A stretch of DNA of 64,000 nt from the NCBI GenBank assembly GCA_963699255.1, contig OY969425.1, positions 646,070 to 710,069 on the forward strand, read 5' to 3'. The notes under the pieces were generated by a model. That model saw nothing but the letters and a program-made list of their open reading frames with translations, was not told the origin of the DNA and did not search any database. The stretch comes from an uncultured bacterium (lineage in GTDB: Bacteria > Margulisbacteria > WOR-1 > CAVSGV01). The position numbers were made by a program, and so were the translations under genes. This document shows, piece after piece, positions 3,377-38,416 of this stretch (its first letter is position 1; the number at the start of each line of letters is the position of its first letter).

Positions 3377-4675
3377 TCATCTCTTATTTCGTCGGATCTT
3401 TTGTAGTCCTTTTTTGACCTTGCCGACTTGATCTCCGATGCCAGATTCTTGGATCTCTTCCGGCAGTTCTTTTAGCTGGACATTTAGCCCAAGTACATCG
3501 ATAACCATCTCTTCGAAAAGTCCGGTAGCCTGGGCCCAGATATCAGGAGAAGCATTATCCCGGCCGTTCAGCTCGAATATAATGTCGCAGAGCTTGAAAA
3601 CTGAAGCCAGAGCTTCAGCTGTATTGAAATCATTGTCCATTGATCTGATGAAATCCGCTTTGACCGCTTTAAGTTCTTTATCGCTGACGTCTTCTTTTCC
3701 GCATGAAGCATGCTCGCGTACTATGAAGAGGGCGCTGATCAGTCTGTCAAGCCCGCCCTTCGCGTTCTCAAGGTCGGCATCAGAGAAATTGATCGGGCTT
3801 CTGTAGTGGGTCGACAAAAGATAGAACCTGATCAACATGGGATTGAATTTCGCGAAAATATCCCGAAGAGTGAAGAAATTGCCGAGCGACTTTGACATCT
3901 TCTCGGAATTTACGTTGACGAACCCGTTGTGTATCCAGTATCTGGCGAAAGGCTTGCCTGTGTAGCACTCCGCCTGGGCTATCTCGTTCTCGTGGTGCGG
4001 GAATACCAGGTCCAATCCTCCGCCATGAATATCAAGAGTATCAACGCCAGCTTCTTTAAGTGACATCACTGAACATTCGATATGCCAGCCTGGCCTTCCT
4101 TTTCCCCACGGCGAATCCCAGCTCGGCTCCCCCTCTTTCGCGGATTTCCATAGAGCAAAATCAAGAGGAGCTTTCTTTCTCTCATCCACAGCGACCCGCG
4201 CGCCCTCTTTCAGGTCATCAAGTTTTCTCTTCGAGAGCTTTCCGTAATCTTTGAACTTGGCCACTTCAAAGTAAACATCACCTTCAATAATATACGCGTA
4301 TCCTTTCTTCACCAGACCTTCGATAACCCTGATCATTTCCTTGATATGCTCTGTCGCTTTGGGGTAAAAGTCCGCTTTTTTGACGTTCAGCTTATCCATC
4401 ACCTCAAAGTAAGAAGCTATATATTTCTCCGTGATCTTCCTGCACAGTTCGCTCACGGCTAACGGCTTACCGCTGACGGCATCTATCCCGTCAGCCGATT
4501 GCCGTAAGCTGTTTGCTTTGTTGATTATCTTGTCATCGATATCGGTGATGTTCTGTATATATTTGACCTTATAGCCCGAATATTTAAGGTACCGGCGGAT
4601 AACATCAAACACCACATAAGCCCTTCCATGTCCAAGGTGCGTCTCGTCATAAGGGGTGATGCCGCAGACATACAT
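3377..4675 (-). CDS. cysS: cysteinyl-tRNA synthetase (the 5' end continues in another frame up to 4749; see finding)
   Basis: 432 aa; HIGH (HLGHGRAY) and KMSKS motifs. The true N-terminus [22 protein letters not shown] is encoded upstream in frame, and the ATG at 4749 overlaps the cysE stop (TAATG). Confidence 0.9.
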   Translation of the reverse strand: MYVCGITPYDETHLGHGRAYVVFDVIRRYLKYSGYKVKYIQNITDIDDKIINKANSLRQSADGIDAVSGKPLAVSELCRKITEKYIASYFEVMDKLNVKKADFYPKATEHIKEMIRVIEGLVKKGYAYIIEGDVYFEVAKFKDYGKLSKRKLDDLKEGARVAVDERKKAPLDFALWKSAKEGEPSWDSPWGKGRPGWHIECSVMSLKEAGVDTLDIHGGGLDLVFPHHENEIAQAECYTGKPFARYWIHNGFVNVNSEKMSKSLGNFFTLRDIFAKFNPMLIRFYLLSTHYRSPINFSDADLENAKGGLDRLISALFIVREHASCGKEDVSDKELKAVKADFIRSMDNDFNTAEALASVFKLCDIIFELNGRDNASPDIWAQATGLFEEMVIDVLGLNVQLKELPEEIQESGIGDQVGKVKKGLQKIRRNKR

Positions 4676-4748: not shown

Positions 4749-5357
4749 TTATTTCTTCAGCATCGATTCGAGTCTTGCAATGCGCTGGTTCATATCATCC
4801 AAAGCTTTTCCGACCGGGTCAGGAAGCTCTCCGTGCGCCAGAGGCTCTATCTTCCTGCCCTCGAGCACTACGATCCTCGCCGGATTGCCGACAACGGTCG
4901 ATTTCGCGGGGACCGATTTCGTGACAACAGCTCCGGCCCCTATTCTAGCATTGTCCCCTATATGTATATTGCCAAGTATTATGGATTCAGCGCCAATAAC
5001 AACTCCGTTGCCGATAGTAGGATGACGTTTGCCTTTTTCCGCGCCGGTGCCACCCAGTGTGACACCCTGATAGATCGTCACATCGTCGCCGACAACAGCC
5101 GTTTCACCTATAACTACTCCAACACCATGATCGATAAAGCACCTTTTGCCGATCTTCGCGCCGGGATGGATCTCGATCAAAGTAGAAAGCCTGCTGACCT
5201 GGGAAATAAAACGGGGAATTACGGGTATCTTAAGGTTGTAAAGAAAATGAGCAACGTTGTGAAACCATAATGCCCATAATCCCTGGTACATCAATACTTC
5301 AAAAATATTGCCGGCTGCCGGGTCCCTTTCAAATACCGCTCTTATTCCATCGAACAT
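4749..5357 (-). CDS. cysE: serine O-acetyltransferase
   Basis: 202 aa; hexapeptide-repeat left-handed beta helix plus a SAT N-terminal domain. Confidence 0.9.
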
Positions 5358-5373
5358 AAATTAACTCCTTTAC

Positions 5374-5901
5374 TTACCTGTCGAAAAAGGGATTCTTTCC
5401 TGTTACGGAAAGAGGTATTCCCATCGCTATTTTAACATCATTTCCCAGAAGACCAAGCTCCACCGCCGCCTTTCCTATCGAGTTCATCAGGCGGTTATCC
5501 GTCCTGTGGTCCATCGCAACGCTCAATGCCGAACCCAATGCGATCCCAAGGTCGATCGTATTGAACGCGCAAACAGCTTCTTTCGGCTTTGATTCACAAT
5601 CCTTGTATCCGCAATGTCCGCACGCCTTGATGCCAAGGATGCCAAGTTTCGTGCCTATCAGGACAACATGGCTTACACCCTTTAGATTTCTCGAGTCCCT
5701 CCTGAACGATTCCGATCCGCCCTGTTTCTCCCTGATCTCAAGCATCTTTTTCGCGAGCTTGCCTACCGTTTCATCCTTTGCTATCGCGGTTACGATATTA
5801 TCAACGCCCTTTGTCTTTGGCGCCGTGCGCGCGGCAACGCACATGTCTTCGGCGATATGGTCCAAAGCTTTTTCCTTGAGATCAGGTTCTTTGATAAGCA
5901 A
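5374..5901 (-). CDS. DUF2148 ferredoxin-like protein
   Basis: 175 aa. A CGHCGYKDC cysteine cluster and the overall similarity are typical of the DUF2148 family. Confidence 0.55.
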   Translation of the reverse strand: MLIKEPDLKEKALDHIAEDMCVAARTAPKTKGVDNIVTAIAKDETVGKLAKKMLEIREKQGGSESFRRDSRNLKGVSHVVLIGTKLGILGIKACGHCGYKDCESKPKEAVCAFNTIDLGIALGSALSVAMDHRTDNRLMNSIGKAAVELGLLGNDVKIAMGIPLSVTGKNPFFDR

Positions 5902-6903
5902 TCAGATCGCCTCCGCCATTTTCCTCAAGAGTTCAAGTTGCTGGGACGTGCCAAGCGCCACCATCACGTCTCCGTGACCGATGACAGTAGTGGCCCCCGG
6001 TTGAAGATTGAATTTACCCGTTCCCTGCTTTATCGCAAGGATCGTTGACCCTGTTTTCTGCTTTATCTCGAGTTCGGACAGCGTCTTTCCGATGAGCTTT
6101 GAGCCGTCATCGATCCTGTATTCCTCAAGCTCCAGCTCCACATTCTCACTGCGCATCACCATATCAAGGAAATCTACCGCCACGGGACGCAGCGCCATGG
6201 AAGCCATCCGGTTCCCGGCGATAAAATAAGGAGAGATCACCCTGTTCGCACCAGCTCTTCTCATTTTCGCTTCCGTGACGATAGTTGACGACCTCGCGAC
6301 TATATACAGGTCCGGGTTCATTTCGCGGGCGGATAAAGTAACATACACGTTCGCCGTATCCGAGTCCGCACAGGCGATAAGCCCCTTTGCCTTCATTATG
6401 CTAGCTGACTCCAGGATCTCATCCGCCGCCATGTCGCCTATGATGCACGGGATATTCTTGTCACCCAGTTCGGATGCGGTCTCAGGTTTGCTGTCCACCA
6501 CGATGTAAGAAACCTTCTCGGCATCGAACTCTTTCGCGACCTGGTGCCCCACCCTGCCGTATCCGCAGATAATATAATGCCCCCTTAACTCCGAGATCTG
6601 TTTTTGCATGCTTCTCATCCTCCTGTATCCGACTATTTGGCCTTCAACCATCATTTCAACCAGCTGACCTACCGTATAACCCACCGTGCCGACGCCGAAA
6701 ATGATCAGGCCCATCGTTATCAGCCTGCCGGCATCGGAGAGCTCGTGCACTTCCCTGAAACCGACCGTCGCAAGCGTGATAGTGACCATATAAGCGGCAT
6801 CAAGGAATCTCCAGTGCTCTATGAGCGTATATCCTTCAAGAGCAAGGGTGATTATCACGACCAGCACGATTATCGGCGGTATTATCCTTCTTAATGGGTT
6901 CAT
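5902..6903 (-). CDS. potassium channel protein with RCK/TrkA-N and TrkA-C domains (MthK-like)
   Basis: 333 aa; two TM helices plus a TVGYG-like selectivity filter (TVGFRE), a GYGRVG Rossmann motif and a TrkA-C domain. Confidence 0.8.
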   Translation of the reverse strand: MNPLRRIIPPIIVLVVIITLALEGYTLIEHWRFLDAAYMVTITLATVGFREVHELSDAGRLITMGLIIFGVGTVGYTVGQLVEMMVEGQIVGYRRMRSMQKQISELRGHYIICGYGRVGHQVAKEFDAEKVSYIVVDSKPETASELGDKNIPCIIGDMAADEILESASIMKAKGLIACADSDTANVYVTLSAREMNPDLYIVARSSTIVTEAKMRRAGANRVISPYFIAGNRMASMALRPVAVDFLDMVMRSENVELELEEYRIDDGSKLIGKTLSELEIKQKTGSTILAIKQGTGKFNLQPGATTVIGHGDVMVALGTSQQLELLRKMAEAI

Positions 6904-15118: not shown

Positions 15119-17143
15119 TTACTTCAATACTATTATTTTCCCTTTCCCTATCGTTCGGCCCTCGGAAGCTATCCTGAAAAGATACACGCCATTCGCGACC
15201 GTTTCCCCGAAATCGTTTTTCCCGTCCCAGTAAACCCTGTTCGTTCCCTGGTTGCCTCCGTTCGTCCCGGATGAAAAGTATTTCCTGCAGATCAAGCTGC
15301 CTGATATATCAAAAAAGTAAATATAAGTTTCGGAATTCGCGTTAAGATCGTATTTGATCATTATCGATCCCTTGTTCGGATTGAACGGGTTCGGGCCGTA
15401 CTGGGCCCGCGCCATAAGCAAAGGCGAGTCGGAAGACCCGGCATGAAAGATGATCATTTTTGCTTTTGACGTGAGATCGTTCAAAGTAAGTCTTACGGTC
15501 AAGTCGCCGTCTAATCCGGTCGAATCCAGGACAGCCAAGGTCCCGTTAAGCACCGGGGTTGTGGAAGTCTCAAGTGTTGTCCATGTTGTCGGGCTGCTGC
15601 CTCGTCCGTATTCAACCACGTATTTGCTGAATGTTTCACCAGTCGCGCTTCCAAGTATATTGATAACCCCATAGGCGGTCCCTTTATTCGCTGGAGAAGA
15701 AATGTATCCGTAAAGCCCGCCTAGTGACGCAAAAGCATTTATGCGTCCTTTGCCAAGCTTCCCTTCGTAACCGGGATTATACGCGTCAATATTATCCGCA
15801 TAATCTTCAATCCTCTGGACCACCGCTTCAGCTGATATCCCGGGATACTTCGCGATAATAAGCGCCGCCAGCCCTGAAACAAAAGGCGTTGCCATGGAAG
15901 TACCTTCAAGCCATTCATCACTTACATCATCCCCGCCATACACGCTTAGTATCCAATGAACATATTCTGTATAACTGCCGTCGCCTCCCGGGGCAGACAC
16001 ATCAACAGATGAACCGTAATTGGAGTAACTTGCTTTGCGATCGTACGGATCAGTTGCCGCGACCGAGAGCACATGAGCATAAGCGGCAGGATAACTGGGG
16101 CTGGAAGTGTTTTCATTTCCCGCGGCGGCCACAAGAACGCAGTCCGCTGTTGCGGCATAGGTGATGCCTTCCAATATCGTACTGCTCGCATCCCCTCCAA
16201 AGCTCATGCTGATGACATCGGCTGATGCGCTTACCGCCCATATCAACCCATTAAAGATATCCACTTCATTCCCCGATCCGCCTGAATCAAATGACTTTAT
16301 CGGGATTATCCTGCAGTGCCAGTCAACTCCGGCAACGCCTTTACCGTTATCCGAATCTGCACCTATTATGCCTGAAACATGGGTCCCGTGATAACCTCGA
16401 AGGGCGGCATCGTCCATTGGATCGCTATTCCCATAAACGAAATTGTATCCTTCCAGGGAGTCCACTCTGTTAATCAGGTCCTCGTGATTGTAATTCACTC
16501 CCGTATCAATGACCGCCACCTTTACCGAGCTCTCCCCCGTGCACATATTCCAGCCGGAATTTCCCTCCTCAGTAGGGGTAAGCCATATCTTATAAAGCCC
16601 CCACTGATTTGGGTTGCTATCCGCGCTGCCCTCACCGGAGATATACCATGGATCGTTCGGGGTATATATGTGCATGATATAATTCGGTTCGGCGAATTCG
16701 ACCGAAGGATCATTTTTGTATTCCTCCACAACCGACTTCACGTCCGTATCCTTCGGGAATTCCAGAAGGAATATCCGCGACATGTCCGGCAGCTCAACAA
16801 CACGCCCGCTCCTGAGCTTTTTCAGTTTGCGCTCTTTTTTCGCGAACGATCTGATGTTGCTTATCTTATATCTGGCGTTAAGCGCTTTTATCGATCCTGG
16901 CATTATTTCAACTTTATCCAGCGAAAAAACACCGACGCCCTTTTTGTCCTTGACCGAAACCACATCCGGCTTGAATTTGACCATCATCTGCCCGGGCACG
17001 AATTCCTCCGCAAAACAGGGGAAACTGAAGAATAATAAACAAAGAAGAACTAGGAACCTGCGACTGAAAGTCGCGGTTCCATTATATTGATTGGAACCGA
17101 GGCTTTTAGCCTCAGGTTCCAATAGCATCGGATCCCTGGTCAT
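15119..17143 (-). CDS. secreted S8-family subtilisin-like serine peptidase with a T9SS/Por-type C-terminal sorting domain
   Basis: D/H/S catalytic triad motifs ([22 protein letters not shown]) and a signal peptide. The C-terminal ~80 aa (NPFNP...[21 protein letters not shown]) resembles the Por secretion tail. The start ATG at 17143 overlaps the secA stop (ATGA); an alternative start lies at 17194. Confidence 0.8.
17053..17120. repeat. two tandem REP-like GGAACC-stem palindromes (GGAACCTGCGACT-GAA-AGTCGCGGTTCC and GGAACCGAGGCT-TTT-AGCCTCAGGTTCC)
   Basis: Perfect or near-perfect 12-bp stems read from the sequence. The same unit recurs at 25444 and 50552. Confidence 0.5.
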
Positions 17144-28373: not shown

Positions 28374-28525
28374 ATGGCAATAAAGGCGATTTAGGGCAAA
28401 ATAAGGCAACAGAAGACACAAGGCTTATGGCTCAGGGTAAAAGCAACTATTCTTTTGCCCTTAGCCATGTATCTTACGCCCTATCCCCTCCATCTCTTCA
28501 TTTGCCTTCAATCGCCTTCAATATC
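28374..28525. repeat. long imperfect palindrome (two ~70-nt inverted arms of degenerate 10-nt ARGGCGATWR units), 'empty' copy
   Basis: The arm ATGGCAATAAAGGCGATTTAGGGCAAAATAAGGC...ATGGCTCAGGGTAAAAG mirrors CTTTTGCCCTTAGCCAT...GCCTTCAATCGCCTTCAATATC around a centre at ~28448. Confidence 0.6.
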
Positions 28526-28629
28526 TTTTTATTTGTCTGCTTTCAAACTTTCAATCAGCTTGAACTATCCCCCTCCGGGCGTATAATTCCTTTTGCTTTG
28601 ATCCTTCCCCATTAAAAGGAGTGTGCGAC

Positions 28630-29761: not shown

Positions 29762-30262
29762 CTAGATCGGAAGCGATATTTTGGACACGCCTATTTTTGA
29801 GGCGTCATCGATCCTGTTAAGCACTTCATCCGCCTTGCCGGGATGGGCGTTCAAATAAACGGACAGCTGCAATATTCCGGTTTGATTGGAGATATCGATC
29901 GTCATGGACTTTTTTTCGGCGGACCTTTCAAGCGGCAGATGGATCCTGGAAGAGCCCTTGCTTGCCGCGGTCGCCATCAATTTCGCTATTTTGTCCCCGC
30001 TGTTGGGATGCGTGTTCATGAAGTCGCTTATTTTCAAGGCGTCCGAGCTGTTGAAAAAGTCCACCTGTTCGGAATTCGCGAGAGGCATATTGCTGCTGGC
30101 GGCTAACGGATTAATGGCCTGGATACCCGGTTCATCGGAGTCATTCCTCTTATCGTCAAAGCCCATATCAGCACATCCTTTCTTAACAGGGGATATTATA
30201 GGCCTTAATAAGACAGAAGGCAAAACATGAAGGCGGGACATGAAGGCGATCGAGGAAGACAA
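29762..30262 (-). CDS. hypothetical protein
   Basis: 166 aa ORF; no motif recognised. The start may be the internal ATG (MGFDD...). Confidence 0.35.
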   Translation of the reverse strand: MSSSIAFMSRLHVLPSVLLRPIISPVKKGCADMGFDDKRNDSDEPGIQAINPLAASSNMPLANSEQVDFFNSSDALKISDFMNTHPNSGDKIAKLMATAASKGSSRIHLPLERSAEKKSMTIDISNQTGILQLSVYLNAHPGKADEVLNRIDDASKIGVSKISLPI

Positions 30263-30418
30263 AAGGCATTGGAATTCGGGAAACTTGGGATACGGTTTAG
30301 AGATATAGGAAAACAGGAATGAGGAAAACAGGAGTTCTTTTCTTCCTCTTTCCCCTTTTTCCTCTTTCCCTAAACTCAGTCCCTATATTCCTTTATCCCC
30401 ATTTCTCTAATATACCCC

Positions 30419-30850
30419 CTACTTCAAGAATCCGATGTTCTTGACCGTTTTATCCGGTATTTCCATCAATTCGTTTATCGCGTCAAAAACCACCTTGAAC
30501 TTGCCGTCGTATTTCTTTTCCATTTCCTCGATCTTCCGCTTCAATTCCGCATGGCTGGAAAGTAATCGTCTTAACCTTGTGAATGTCCTCATGATCTGGA
30601 TATTGACCTGAACGGCTCTTTCGCTGTTGAGCACTGAAGACAGCATTGCCACTCCTTGTTCAGTAAAGGCATAAGGCGAGAAGCGCCTCTTGCTGTATTT
30701 TGCGGTCACAAATTGTGACCGCAAATATTCAGACTCTTGCTCTGTCAACTGGAACATAAAATCATCAGGAAATCTCCGAATGGCAATAAAGGCGATTGAG
30801 GGCGATAAAGGGCGATAGAAGGCACAGGGCTTATGGCTTAGGGCTGGCAC
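30419..30850 (-). pseudogene. ORF6N-domain (KilA-N-like) protein, 5'-truncated by insertion of the palindromic cassette
   Basis: [15 protein letters not shown]...[29 protein letters not shown] matches the C-terminal half of the ORF6N domain. Sequence upstream of RFPDDF is repeat-derived, and the N-terminal half of the domain is absent. Confidence 0.6.
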
Positions 30851-31289
30851 TTGCGTTTTAAGGAATAAATAAGGCGGTTGAATAAGTATAAAGTTTTGAT
30901 AGTTAGTCCTTCAAAATGATCAAAAACATCTTTTGATACGTACTTTTTCAAATATACATGCCGCGACCAATTTCCCAATTCCGCTAGAGATCTGCGGCTA
31001 AAGCCCAAAAATCTAATGTATTCCTTTATACTGCCCGAATAATATCCTTCTACAAAGTTTGCGCTGACTGATGTTACCGCCCGATCAATTTGGTCTCTTA
31101 AACTAAAACAATTCTTCGGCACCAGCGGCATTATTTCACGATAAAGATATGTTTCTATTTTTTCAATATTGCCCCATACGATCATTTTTTTGTGTCCCTG
31201 CATGCAATTGCCCCCTTCTTCCCGCCTTACGCCTTGAGCCTCAAGCCCTAACACTCCCCTATATCGCCTTCTTTTGCCCTAATTGCCAT
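30780..31289. mobile_element. intervening-sequence-like cassette: a palindrome-family arm (30780-30850), a four-helix-bundle gene, and an inverted arm (31205-31289)
   Basis: Both arms belong to the ARGGCGATWR-unit family seen at 28374-28525 and 31388-31548. They overlap the gene's stop codon and promoter region. Inferred from sequence structure only. Confidence 0.4.
30838..31203 (-). CDS. four-helix-bundle protein (23S rRNA intervening-sequence protein family, TIGR02436-like)
   Basis: [18 protein letters not shown]...[45 protein letters not shown] matches the family consensus (L.vWqka...RAavSIpsNIAEG...F..A.GSlaEl). Confidence 0.75.
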
Positions 31290-31387
31290 ACCTTAACCAG
31301 CAATTTTTATGCCAAGGGAAATAAACATAGAAAGATCGAATATGCAGCAGCTTTCGACAGATGGGTGTCGAGAAGGATGACATGAGA

Positions 31388-31548
31388 AAGGGCAATTAAG
31401 GCGATTGATGGCGATACAAGGTGGTGGAAGGCATATGGCTAAAGGCTCATGGCAAAAGGAAATTTGTTTCTTGCCTTTTGTCTTATATCGTAAGCCCTAT
31501 ATGCCCTCTTTTGCCTTCAATCGCCATAAATCGCCCTTTATTTCTGCG
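31388..31548. repeat. long imperfect palindrome of the same family, 'empty' copy
   Basis: AAGGGCAATTAAGGCGATTGATGGCGATACAAGG... mirrored by ...CCTTCAATCGCCATAAATCGCCCTTT around a centre at ~31465. Confidence 0.55.
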
Positions 31549-37361: not shown

Positions 37362-37472
37362 CTCACAAATTACAATAAACAAATCACAAACAATAAACAA
37401 TCAACAAATTACAATGTTTGTCAGATTGTATATTGTAAATTGTTTGTAACTTGGGATTTGTTTATTGTGTAT
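37362..37472. repeat. A/C-rich heptamer-periodic tract (CAAWNAA units) followed by its G/T-rich inverted complement; a long imperfect hairpin between nrnA and truB
   Basis: ACAATAAACAAATCACAAACAATAAACAATCAACAAATTACAA, then TGTTTGTCAGATTGTATATTGTAAATTGTTTGTAAC.... Confidence 0.45.
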
Positions 37473-38416
37473 TATTTGATCACCCTGAACACTTCGGCCA
37501 GCGTTTTTTCTTTCGCGTCTTCAAGCTTTCCGTTGAGTATCGCCCCGGACGCCCTTATGTGCCCGCCGCCGCCCAGCTTCTTCGCTATGTCGGATACGTT
37601 CACCTTGAATTTGGAGCGGAAATTCACTTTTATCCCGTCACCTTCCTCGCGGAAAAGGACCGCCACCTCAACGCCTTTTATTGAGCGTATCTGATCCACA
37701 ATGCCCGTAAGGTCCTCGCTCTTCGCCCCGATCGAATCCATCAGCTTCCGGGGGAGGACCGTCCACGCGACCTTCCCGCTCTTTGTGGTCTCCAGCCTGT
37801 ACATCGCGGCCCCGAGCACTTTCACGGAAGATTTCGTCTTTGACTCATAGACCGCCATCGCGATCCTGCTTATGTCCGCACCCGCCCTCGCGAGGAACGC
37901 GGCGACGTCAAAGGTCCGGGCGGTCGTGTAGTCATAACGGAAATTCCCCGTGTCTGTCATTATTCCCGCGTAAAGGCACGCCGCGATATCCTTTGATATC
38001 CTGATGTTCATTTTCCTGAATAAATTGAATAATATCTCAGAAACGGAAGAAATATTCTCGATCAGATTTATATCGCCGAATTCCGTGTTGTCAGGATGGT
38101 GGTCTATATTGATGATCTTATGCGCCAGGGCCTTGAGGTTTATTTTCTTCCCCACCCTGTTCTCGCCGCCGCAGTCAACCGCAACGGCAAGATCGAATTT
38201 CCCCCTGCCTAAAGAATGCTTCACTCTGGCCGACTGCGGAAGGAACCTGTATATCTGGGGCACCTTGTCCCTGCAGTACATCGTGACCTTTTTGCCCGAT
38301 GCCTTCAGCGCGAGGTACATCGCCAGCATGGATCCCACGGCGTCGCCGTCCGGATCCGTGTGGGTAACGATCAGCGCGCTGCCGGCTTTTTGTATCGCCT
38401 TTATGACTTCTTGCAT
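37472..38416 (-). CDS. nrnA: bifunctional oligoribonuclease / pAp phosphatase NrnA (DHH-DHHA1)
   Basis: 314 aa; DHH motifs (HTDPDGDAVGS, DHH) and a GGGH DHHA1 motif. Confidence 0.85.
   Translation of the reverse strand: MQEVIKAIQKAGSALIVTHTDPDGDAVGSMLAMYLALKASGKKVTMYCRDKVPQIYRFLPQSARVKHSLGRGKFDLAVAVDCGGENRVGKKINLKALAHKIINIDHHPDNTEFGDINLIENISSVSEILFNLFRKMNIRISKDIAACLYAGIMTDTGNFRYDYTTARTFDVAAFLARAGADISRIAMAVYESKTKSSVKVLGAAMYRLETTKSGKVAWTVLPRKLMDSIGAKSEDLTGIVDQIRSIKGVEVAVLFREEGDGIKVNFRSKFKVNVSDIAKKLGGGGHIRASGAILNGKLEDAKEKTLAEVFRVIK

Follow-up and report, generated by a model that had tools for sequence, protein, structure and literature searches.

A four-helix-bundle gene enclosed by long complementary arms outside rRNA: a candidate free-standing intervening-sequence-type unit in a WOR-1 genome

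The stretch analysed here, hereafter the window, comprises 64 kb of contig OY969425.1 from an uncultured bacterium of the WOR-1 lineage. Near its middle lies a cassette of 510 nt in which a gene for a 121-aa four-helix-bundle (4HB) protein of the S23p/TIGR02436 family stands between two mutually complementary arms of about 65-85 nt. The best explanation for this arrangement, which we hold with moderate confidence, is a free-standing, relocatable transcription unit of the intervening-sequence type. Read in order, the unit would consist of a sigma-54-type promoter, a purine-rich leader of rARGGCnnnn units, the 4HB gene and a complementary 3' trailer, and its counterpart inside helix 45 of a 23S rRNA gene would be an intervening sequence that bears an open reading frame (ORF). 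The arms characterise this 4HB gene family as a whole, beyond the single locus: flanking inverted repeats were found at 53 of 73 related loci, compared with one of 70 neighbouring control ORFs.

The gene, its arms and related hairpins

The cassette is made up of three features.

30838 to 31203, minus strand: 4HB protein gene, 121 aa (PF05635/TIGR02436; S23p/Avd fold), from profile searches, a structure model and codon comparison with a related locus, L005
31205 to 31290, minus strand: 5' arm, purine-rich on the sense strand of the gene, made of ~10-nt rARGGCnnnn units
30780 to 30846, minus strand: 3' arm, complementary to the 5' arm

The gene is a bona fide S23p/TIGR02436 member. The original prediction had called it TIGR02436-like, and searches with profile hidden Markov models bear this out, with scores above the cut-offs of both PF05635 (60.5 bits, cut-off 33.8) and TIGR02436 (61.1 bits, cut-off 24). 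An AlphaFold model of the monomer (predicted local distance difference test score, pLDDT, 95.4) has four long helices (residues 8-27, 33-54, 59-85 and 91-119). Its best match in the PDB was XCC0516 (2GSC; template modelling score, TM, 0.89), which phmmer also found for the window protein among PDB sequences (E = 1e-5), and further matches were Avd (4DWL, TM 0.79), BT_0352 (2RLD, TM 0.76) and the ribonucleoprotein of a diversity-generating retroelement (DGR; 8UB7). The family has the conserved motif GxxRxxxSxxxNxxE (PMC3936711); the window protein carries RxxxSxxxNxxE with Q in place of the G, and in 37 close homologues Q38, R41, S45 and E52 are invariant and N49 nearly so. The protein contains 20 K/R against 11 D/E. 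Between the window gene and its copy at L005 (93% protein identity), 37 codon differences are synonymous and 8 non-synonymous, which points to purifying selection on the protein. The longest ORFs at this position run through the arms, one of 138 aa from a GTG codon (30838-31254, minus strand), the form used in public gene calls (L001), and one of 143 aa (30419-30850, minus strand); both are most likely artefacts of read-through across the repeat arms.

The likeness to Avd, the accessory protein of DGRs, is also what would be expected of a DGR remnant, that is, of an Avd gene now devoid of reverse transcriptase and template repeat. Among the accessory families of DGR loci, PF05635 is the most frequent (PMC10053308), and the fold matches both Avd and the DGR ribonucleoprotein. 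However, the free-standing S23p protein 2GSC is closer in structure than Avd, no reverse transcriptase is present in the large ORFs of the window, the neighbourhood is one of chromosomal housekeeping genes (SecA, CysRS, SerRS, PFK and a P-type ATPase), the layout without a reverse transcriptase recurs in about 100 loci, and no close relative was found in viral contigs. We consider such an origin very improbable.

The arms are placed precisely with respect to the gene. The 5' arm starts ~9 nt past the -12 element of the promoter described below, contains the ribosome-binding site (GAAGGGGG, 31211-31218) and stops ~18 nt short of the ATG, while the stop codon (30838-30840) falls within the 3' arm, whose outer end adjoins codon 48 of an ORF6N-domain gene. 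The arms are 73-79% complementary (79% over the terminal 33 nt), and they pair with each other in the minimum-free-energy fold of both strands; compared with shuffled sequences, a construct of the arms only gave z = -4.7 for the sense and -7.8 for the antisense strand. Both coordinates and pairing agree with the original prediction, in which inverted arms of one repeat family flank the gene and overlap its stop codon and upstream region. The presence of a purine-rich arm upstream was dropped as evidence of gene orientation, because a palindrome with a purine-rich left arm reads so on both strands.

The same repeat family also occurs without a gene. Nearby empty copies of the palindrome had been proposed, and two are confirmed; a third, degenerate palindrome is tentatively assigned to the family.

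31389 to 31545, no strand: hairpin of the family without a gene, flanked by the DUF6790 stop codon and the promoter region of the cassette
28374 to 28530, no strand: hairpin of the family without a gene, in the spacer that separates the divergent cyclophilin and beta-propeller genes
about 30200 to 30415, no strand: degenerate related palindrome directly 3' of the ORF6N stop, a GCC-periodic stretch resembling a solo arm

The left arm of the cassette shares 84% identity over 64 nt with that of the hairpin at 28374-28530 (blastn E = 1e-8 within the window) and 72% with that of the hairpin at 31389-31545. RNA folding across the cassette and the empty copies showed pairing of the cassette arms and significant folding of both gene-less hairpins (z between -5.4 and -9.6), while the degenerate palindrome gave z = -3.0 and -3.6. 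The hairpin at 31389-31545 and the degenerate palindrome are absent from L004, a syntenic locus discussed below. Gene-less hairpins could be derivatives that remained after gene loss, or precursors without a gene. In total, the 64 kb hold three clear copies of the family and one degenerate copy, all within 3.3 kb, and no further copy was found in the window. Hairpins were sought with an ungapped anti-diagonal scan, which misses gapped hairpins such as 28374-28530; it superseded a self-blast and a strict regular expression for GGC arrays, both of which were too insensitive. The arm pattern GGCAATWAAGGCGATTKAKGGC had 0 matches in GTDB representative genomes. Rfam at the gathering threshold returned nothing in the window, nor was any tRNA found; at E <= 1 over 28.2-31.7 kb, the only matches were to plant miRNAs on the 30.3-kb hairpin, and these were judged spurious.

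Other palindromes in the window are unlike this family in sequence. A long imperfect hairpin at 37364-37478 (44-nt arms, 80% complementary, 9-nt loop; z ~ -6 on both strands) has arms of ~10-nt ACAAA/ACAAT units, a periodic design like that of the GGC family with a different sequence. The short-loop hairpins at 4455-4512 and 17053-17120 have internally repeated arms (ACGGCT units, and GGAACC...GCGAC units) with no sequence relation to the GGC family. At 705-752 of locus L002, a small pyrimidine-first hairpin (CCCCCTCACTTTCTCCCCC...GGGGGAGAGGAAGAGGGGG) is inserted in the ORF6N promoter and separates its -24 element from the upstream box, and another pyrimidine-first palindrome occupies ~2975-3075 of L011, in the spacer between a giant-protein gene and an acyltransferase gene. 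Several families of intergenic hairpins are common in these lineages.

Recurrence of the layout and its putative transcript ends

The survey covered 80 metagenome loci and 28 GTDB genome loci encoding 4HB proteins with 44-72% identity to the window protein. The closest named genomes belong to Margulisiibacteriota, WOR-1 and Saganbacteria, and others to WOR-3, the Candidate Phyla Radiation (CPR), Chloroflexi and KSB1. Inverted repeats were scored as flanking at z > 4, with a median of 6.6 at the 4HB loci and 0.24 at the control ORFs. Long-loop hairpins found elsewhere in 486 kb of related loci almost all enclose a 4HB paralogue. The whole layout recurs in Margulisiibacteriota, WOR-1 and Saganbacteria, and the arms alone also in WOR-3, CPR and Chloroflexi. 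The gene had earlier been described as cargo of a palindromic family; the shared repeat family holds, but "cargo" understates the link, as the arms track the 4HB genes. Further, neither the window nor any of 20 related genome loci has an rRNA gene that Rfam detects, in line with the earlier proposal of a free-standing, intervening-sequence-like unit outside rRNA. A tblastn search of plasmids gave no match.

The control comparison bears directly on the view that generic genome palindromes happen to lie on either side of an ordinary small gene. The unrelated long hairpins with periodic arms in the window, noted above, would suit such a chance juxtaposition. However, the contrast between 4HB loci and controls, the mutual pairing of the arms, their precise boundaries (stop codon in the 3' arm, ribosome-binding site in the 5' arm) and the presence of the same cassette and arms at L005 with a 93%-identical protein effectively refute it.

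Across cassettes the arms are arrays of rARGGCnnnn. Successive GGC are most often 10 nt apart (42% of spacings), and conservation of the A that stands two bases before GGC is 89%. Arms of the same cassette pair better than arms of different cassettes (median Smith-Waterman pairing score of 41.5 for cognate and 23 for non-cognate arms), and in 23 of 34 cases the cognate score lies above the 95th percentile for non-cognate pairs. The consensus stem of the six closest cassettes has 43 long-range pairs among 45 predicted in all, 10 of them with compensatory changes.

The regular spacing allows another reading, in which the 10-nt ARGGC units, on duplex DNA or RNA, would be a phased array bound along one helical face by an oligomer, most economically the pentamer of the encoded 4HB protein, for autoregulation or packaging, the complementarity of the arms being secondary. 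The 10-nt peak, the conserved A and the excess of non-cognate arms over shuffled sequences (median 23 versus ~17, from shared motif content) all fit this. Avd, the only characterised member of the family, forms a pentamer of positive charge and binds stem-loops in RNA (bioRxiv 10.1101/2023.10.23.563531), and the window protein is rich in K and R as well. On the other hand, cognate arms pair better than non-cognate ones and do so in register for up to 76 nt, so that pairing itself is maintained, beyond motif content. Further, binding by the 4HB protein would be by analogy with Avd, and the unit sequence outside ARGGC varies widely among cassettes. As the main role of the arms, a phased array therefore appears distinctly unlikely to us.

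Upstream of the 5' arm, two further features were delineated, of which the promoter element had been overlooked in the original prediction.

31299 to 31314, minus strand: sigma-54-type -24/-12 promoter element (TGGCATAAAAATTGCT), proposed from its recurrence in related 4HB loci
31339 to 31371, minus strand: conserved upstream region, in which the palindrome TCGACA-N6-TGTCGA (31354-31371) and the box GTCGAAAGCTGCTGCATATT (31339-31358) overlap

The pattern TGG-N8-TTGC[AT] occurs within 230 nt upstream of the ATG at 39 of 87 loci, compared with 1.35% of random 230-nt segments, and at ~34 of ~82 loci when duplicates and two matches in coding regions are left out. The matches nearly always read TGGCA-N6-TTGCT and stand directly before the 5' arm, mostly ~100-120 nt before the ATG. 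The consensus of RpoN promoters has GG at -24 and GC at -12 (TGGCACG-N4-TTGCW), and the elements of the window and of 38 other loci fit it with canonical spacing. The candidate upstream site, unlike typical enhancer sites, is close to the -24 element (~25-60 nt). We know of no description of sigma-54 control of the 4HB gene family. The upstream region consists of columns that are invariant across the window, L005, L004 and L002, and boxes similar to GTCGAAAGCTGCTGCATATT lie upstream of several unrelated cassettes; judged from this conservation, it is possibly an activator or operator site.

At the other end, 24 of 47 cassettes have a T-run after the 3' arm (background 16.6%). A bipartite motif, ATGCAAGTTT-N13/14-CGATAWAT, was considered as the right end of the element and rejected, as it recurs before other genes in the same loci. 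In the form ATGCAAGTTT-N13/14-CGATAWATAWAGTG, it fits a sigma-28/FliA promoter and was treated as belonging to the neighbouring genes. It lies directly 3' of the 3' arm in ~11 of 51 cassettes, and a number of small genes in the neighbourhood have it upstream too. Its occurrences include L011 at 4584, 5158, 6080 and 6620, L019 at 2122, 2882 and 3606, and others in L028, L034, L039, L040, L051, L057, L098, L101 and L104. Cassettes are often located in gene clusters that bear this motif.

The ORF6N neighbour and apparent relocation between genomes

The gene adjoining the 3' arm differs from what had been proposed for it.

30419 to 30781, minus strand: ORF6N remnant, corresponding to residues 48-167 of intact 167-aa homologues

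The window ORF6N gene is a 5'-truncated remnant, as judged by comparison with these homologues. It matches only positions 36-86 of the 86 in the Pfam profile, and in tblastn residues 48-167 of the homologues align to 30781-30422, starting exactly at the arm boundary. Missing are codons 1-47, or 47 of 167 residues, together with the 5' leader; the reported truncation stands, although the lost part is less than the N-terminal half that had been claimed. Three related loci show the site in other states. L004, on a 105-kb contig of the Joint Genome Institute (JGI), is syntenic with the window (DNA ligase ... DUF6790 - ORF6N - ... - cyclophilin) and has an intact ORF6N gene without the cassette and without the hairpins. 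L002 has an intact ORF6N that is 87% identical and a site empty of the cassette. L005 has both the cassette and an intact ORF6N gene, with the cassette standing between that gene and the same upstream region. The comparison sought between occupied and empty alleles can be made on these loci, the window and L005 being occupied and L004 and L002 empty.

A four-way alignment of the window, L005, L004 and L002 identifies 31290-31388 (99 nt) as the non-coding promoter/operator region of ORF6N, with the cassette starting right after the motif TTGCTGG. The same 99 nt had been considered as the missing ORF6N N-terminus ('VILLDTHLSK...'), for which tblastn gave no support. The claim that an insertion split the ORF6N gene is not upheld, given that the far flank of the cassette is non-coding and that L005 combines the same cassette with an intact ORF6N. 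In the window, the stretch from the 3' end of the cassette up to codon 47 is deleted and not displaced (~165 nt lost relative to L004 and L002, ~218 nt relative to L005). In the order of events that we propose, the cassette would have been upstream of ORF6N first, and a later deletion from its 3' end would have taken the ORF6N leader and 47 codons. Long inverted repeats stimulate deletions at their borders, and a deletion of this kind is what we infer for the window ORF6N.

Several further observations concern this gene. At 624-700 of L005, the cassette is followed by an additional half arm (GGCAATGATGGCAAGTGAGGGCGATTGGGGGCAGG...GGGAAGGAG), which forms the leader and ribosome-binding site of the intact ORF6N. 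Its missing counterpart could be the GCC-periodic stretch at ~30205-30275 of the window, downstream of ORF6N. In that case, a hairpin may formerly have enclosed ORF6N as well. L004 has two tandem ORF6N paralogues (167 and 168 aa; 5004-6025) with near-identical C-terminal halves, and the window has one truncated copy. A perfect palindrome, GTCACAA(A/T)TTGTGAC, lies inside the ORF6N coding sequence of the window (30705-30719, encoding RSQFVTA), and recurs at L002 592-606 and 1003-1017, L004 5207-5221 and L041 2343-2357. In L002 it occurs in non-coding DNA ahead of ORF6N, and in L041 it precedes the sigma-54-type promoter that belongs to an unrelated 4HB cassette; it is possibly a regulatory site that these loci share.

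Comparative data from a second pair of loci also indicate that the cassette relocates between genomes. L007 (reverse-complemented) and L011 share the gene order giant protein - acyltransferase - 61/62-aa gene - 99/100-aa gene. The 74%-identical cassette lies antisense between the giant-protein and acyltransferase genes in L007, and in sense orientation between the acyltransferase and 62-aa genes in L011; L007 has a solo 3' arm at the site used by the L011 cassette. The L007 insert measures 735 bp and includes the promoter region. On either side of the L007/L016 insert stands a 22-bp direct repeat, a duplicate of the first part of the acyltransferase gene, and all five assemblies of this locus have it. 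A possible 7-bp direct repeat, AGTTTAA, surrounds the L005 cassette; in the window, the flank relevant to a target-site duplication is deleted. Taken together, the occupied and empty alleles and the differences in position and orientation between L007 and L011 speak for the suggestion that the cassette is possibly mobile. Among 27 window ORFs scanned (seven near the cassette and twenty larger ones), there was no transposase or reverse transcriptase. Mobility of intervening sequences was proposed in 1993 and never shown (PMC4990558), and 23S_rRNA_IVP genes have been found interspersed within cas operons (PMC3936711).

Transcript or DNA element, and known systems

If the cassette is a transcription unit, transcription would start at the base of the 5' arm, with the first bases of the arm, and the two ends of the mRNA would form a long imperfect duplex of ~65-80 bp that closes off the ORF. 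By analogy with rRNA intervening sequences, this duplex may be a target of a double-strand-specific RNase such as RNase III. Alternatively or additionally, it could be a stabilising or terminating structure (a closed 'panhandle') or the binding site of the encoded protein, a putative RNA-binding pentamer, and the unit would relocate as a block. A role of the duplex in the transcript is favoured because of the position of the promoter, the exact enclosure of the ORF and the T-run, while the arms may also act at the level of DNA, as inverted-repeat ends or a cruciform. RNase III cleavage, the function of the protein and the mechanism of mobility are inferred.

A number of results weigh against this explanation. 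With respect to the fold, the full-length sense sequence does not differ significantly from shuffled sequences in energy (z = -1.2), and the duplex is imperfect (~74% Watson-Crick positions; longest perfect helix in the window ~11 bp), so that efficient cleavage by RNase III is not assured. Among 51 arm pairs there was no wobble asymmetry, with 283 sense G·U-type mismatches compared with 294 of the A·C type. The sense RNA is therefore not singled out as the selected form, and pairing at the level of DNA fits equally well. Between the window and L005, no compensatory double change was found among the pairs (34 unchanged, 4 kept after a one-sided change and 7 broken); stem stability was kept only by pairing in a shifted register, which the periodic units permit (-71.9 versus -69.8 kcal/mol). 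With respect to the promoter, the sigma-54-type element is also conserved upstream of the intact ORF6N in L004 and L002, which makes it ambiguous whether the window promoter belongs to the cassette or to ORF6N; in L007, the promoter does lie within the inserted segment. Further, no rpoN or activator gene is present in the large ORFs of the window, a motif search found no RpoN-box or GAFTGA motif in 550 kb of window and locus sequence, and the promoter was undetected at 48 of 87 loci, including most of the arm-bearing genome loci from WOR-3, CPR and Chloroflexi. Finally, a search of 68 loci revealed no general target-site duplication beyond controls, L007/L016 being the exception.

The equal mismatch frequencies are what would be predicted for an element that acts as DNA, resembling a miniature inverted-repeat transposable element (MITE). 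The arms would then be terminal and subterminal inverted repeats built of short binding motifs in arrays, and a transposase or recombinase from another locus would recognise them as DNA, in duplex, cruciform or single-strand hairpin form. On this view the 4HB gene would be a passenger, with the gene-less hairpins as the usual non-autonomous form. Three to four copies with and without the gene, all absent from L004, lie close together, inverted motif arrays at both ends are found in many transposon ends, and both the relocation and inversion between L007 and L011 with the 22-bp repeat and the possible 7-bp repeat at L005 would be at home in such an element. However, the arms accompany 4HB genes across 44-93% protein identity and several phyla, which would be unexpected of a generic vehicle, and long-loop hairpins in related loci almost always enclose a 4HB gene. 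Further, the duplication of target sites is not consistent, no transposase was found among the scanned ORFs, clear copies are few, the arm pattern is without a match in GTDB representative genomes, and a promoter exactly at the base of the arm together with a T-run after the 3' arm suggests a transcribed structure. We regard a MITE-like element as unlikely.

The intervening-sequence-type transcription unit that we favour can be compared with three known systems. The first comprises MITEs and the repetitive extragenic palindromic (REP) and bacterial interspersed mosaic element (BIME) palindromes. Like these, the cassette family is short, non-autonomous, palindromic and intergenic, has terminal inverted repeats, and is present in several copies that differ in presence or absence between related genomes, with gene-less copies among them. 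Unlike them, its loaded form has a conserved gene that encodes neither a transposase nor a REP-associated tyrosine transposase (RAYT), its arms are imperfect and internally periodic, target-site duplication is not consistent, and its copies are few and clustered in 64 kb. In view of the conserved gene and the mixed results on target-site duplication and copy number, the cassette cannot be filed under the MITE class.

With the Avd proteins of DGRs, the cassette product shares the four-helix-bundle fold and a basic character, and there is a loose parallel in that the RNA flanks of the DGR template pair and Avd binds a stem-loop. The window gene, in contrast, is solitary and its product has ~17% sequence identity to Avd. 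No long direct repeats and no template or variable repeat were found near the gene; lacking a reverse transcriptase, the cassette is not a DGR.

The closest comparison is with the ORF-bearing intervening sequences in 23S rRNA genes of Leptospira, Coxiella burnetii, Xanthomonas and Brucella. In these, inverted-repeat borders form a stem that is cleaved by RNase III, and the idea that they are mobile elements is old and untested (PMC4990558). Both they and the cassette encode a PF05635/TIGR02436 protein of ~120 aa, have complementary ends that form a stem around the whole ORF-bearing element, are of similar total size (~430-760 nt, with 510 nt in the window) and show a patchy distribution that suggests horizontal movement (PMC4990558). 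The cassette, however, lies between ORF6N and DUF6790 genes and fragments no rRNA, which places it outside the strict intervening-sequence class. It seemingly has its own sigma-54-type promoter instead of relying on rRNA transcription, its arms, with their 10-nt ARGGC units, are longer (~65-85 nt, versus 28 bp in Coxiella) and much less perfect (~75% complementary), and its excision by RNase III would be by analogy. We found no description of the arm and promoter architecture of free-standing 4HB genes in the searchable literature, which is absence of evidence only.

A wider generalisation, doubtful as it stands, is that S23p/TIGR02436 genes are as a rule the core of a widespread, undescribed class of selfish minigenes, each running from a promoter through an ARGGC-periodic arm and the 4HB gene to a complementary arm. 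The pentamer would recognise its own phased duplex and aid maintenance or relocation, the ORF-bearing rRNA intervening sequences and the 4HB genes in cas and other operons would be landing sites, and Avd would be a domesticated member.

ORF-bearing 23S rRNA intervening sequences have been known since 1993, with their origin and the function of S23p still open (PMC4990558), and the S23p domain is still called functionally uncharacterised (PMC11270868). The window locus and about 100 relatives show that the design of an ORF enclosed by a long stem occurs independently of rRNA, and that it comes with a recognisable promoter, a 10-nt-periodic arm and changed positions between related genomes. Arms and promoter offer a sequence signature for finding such cassettes, and the notion that intervening sequences are insertions of free-living cassettes into rRNA helices is now testable. 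Experiments can thereby address where ORF-bearing intervening sequences come from and what a very widespread family of uncharacterised proteins does.

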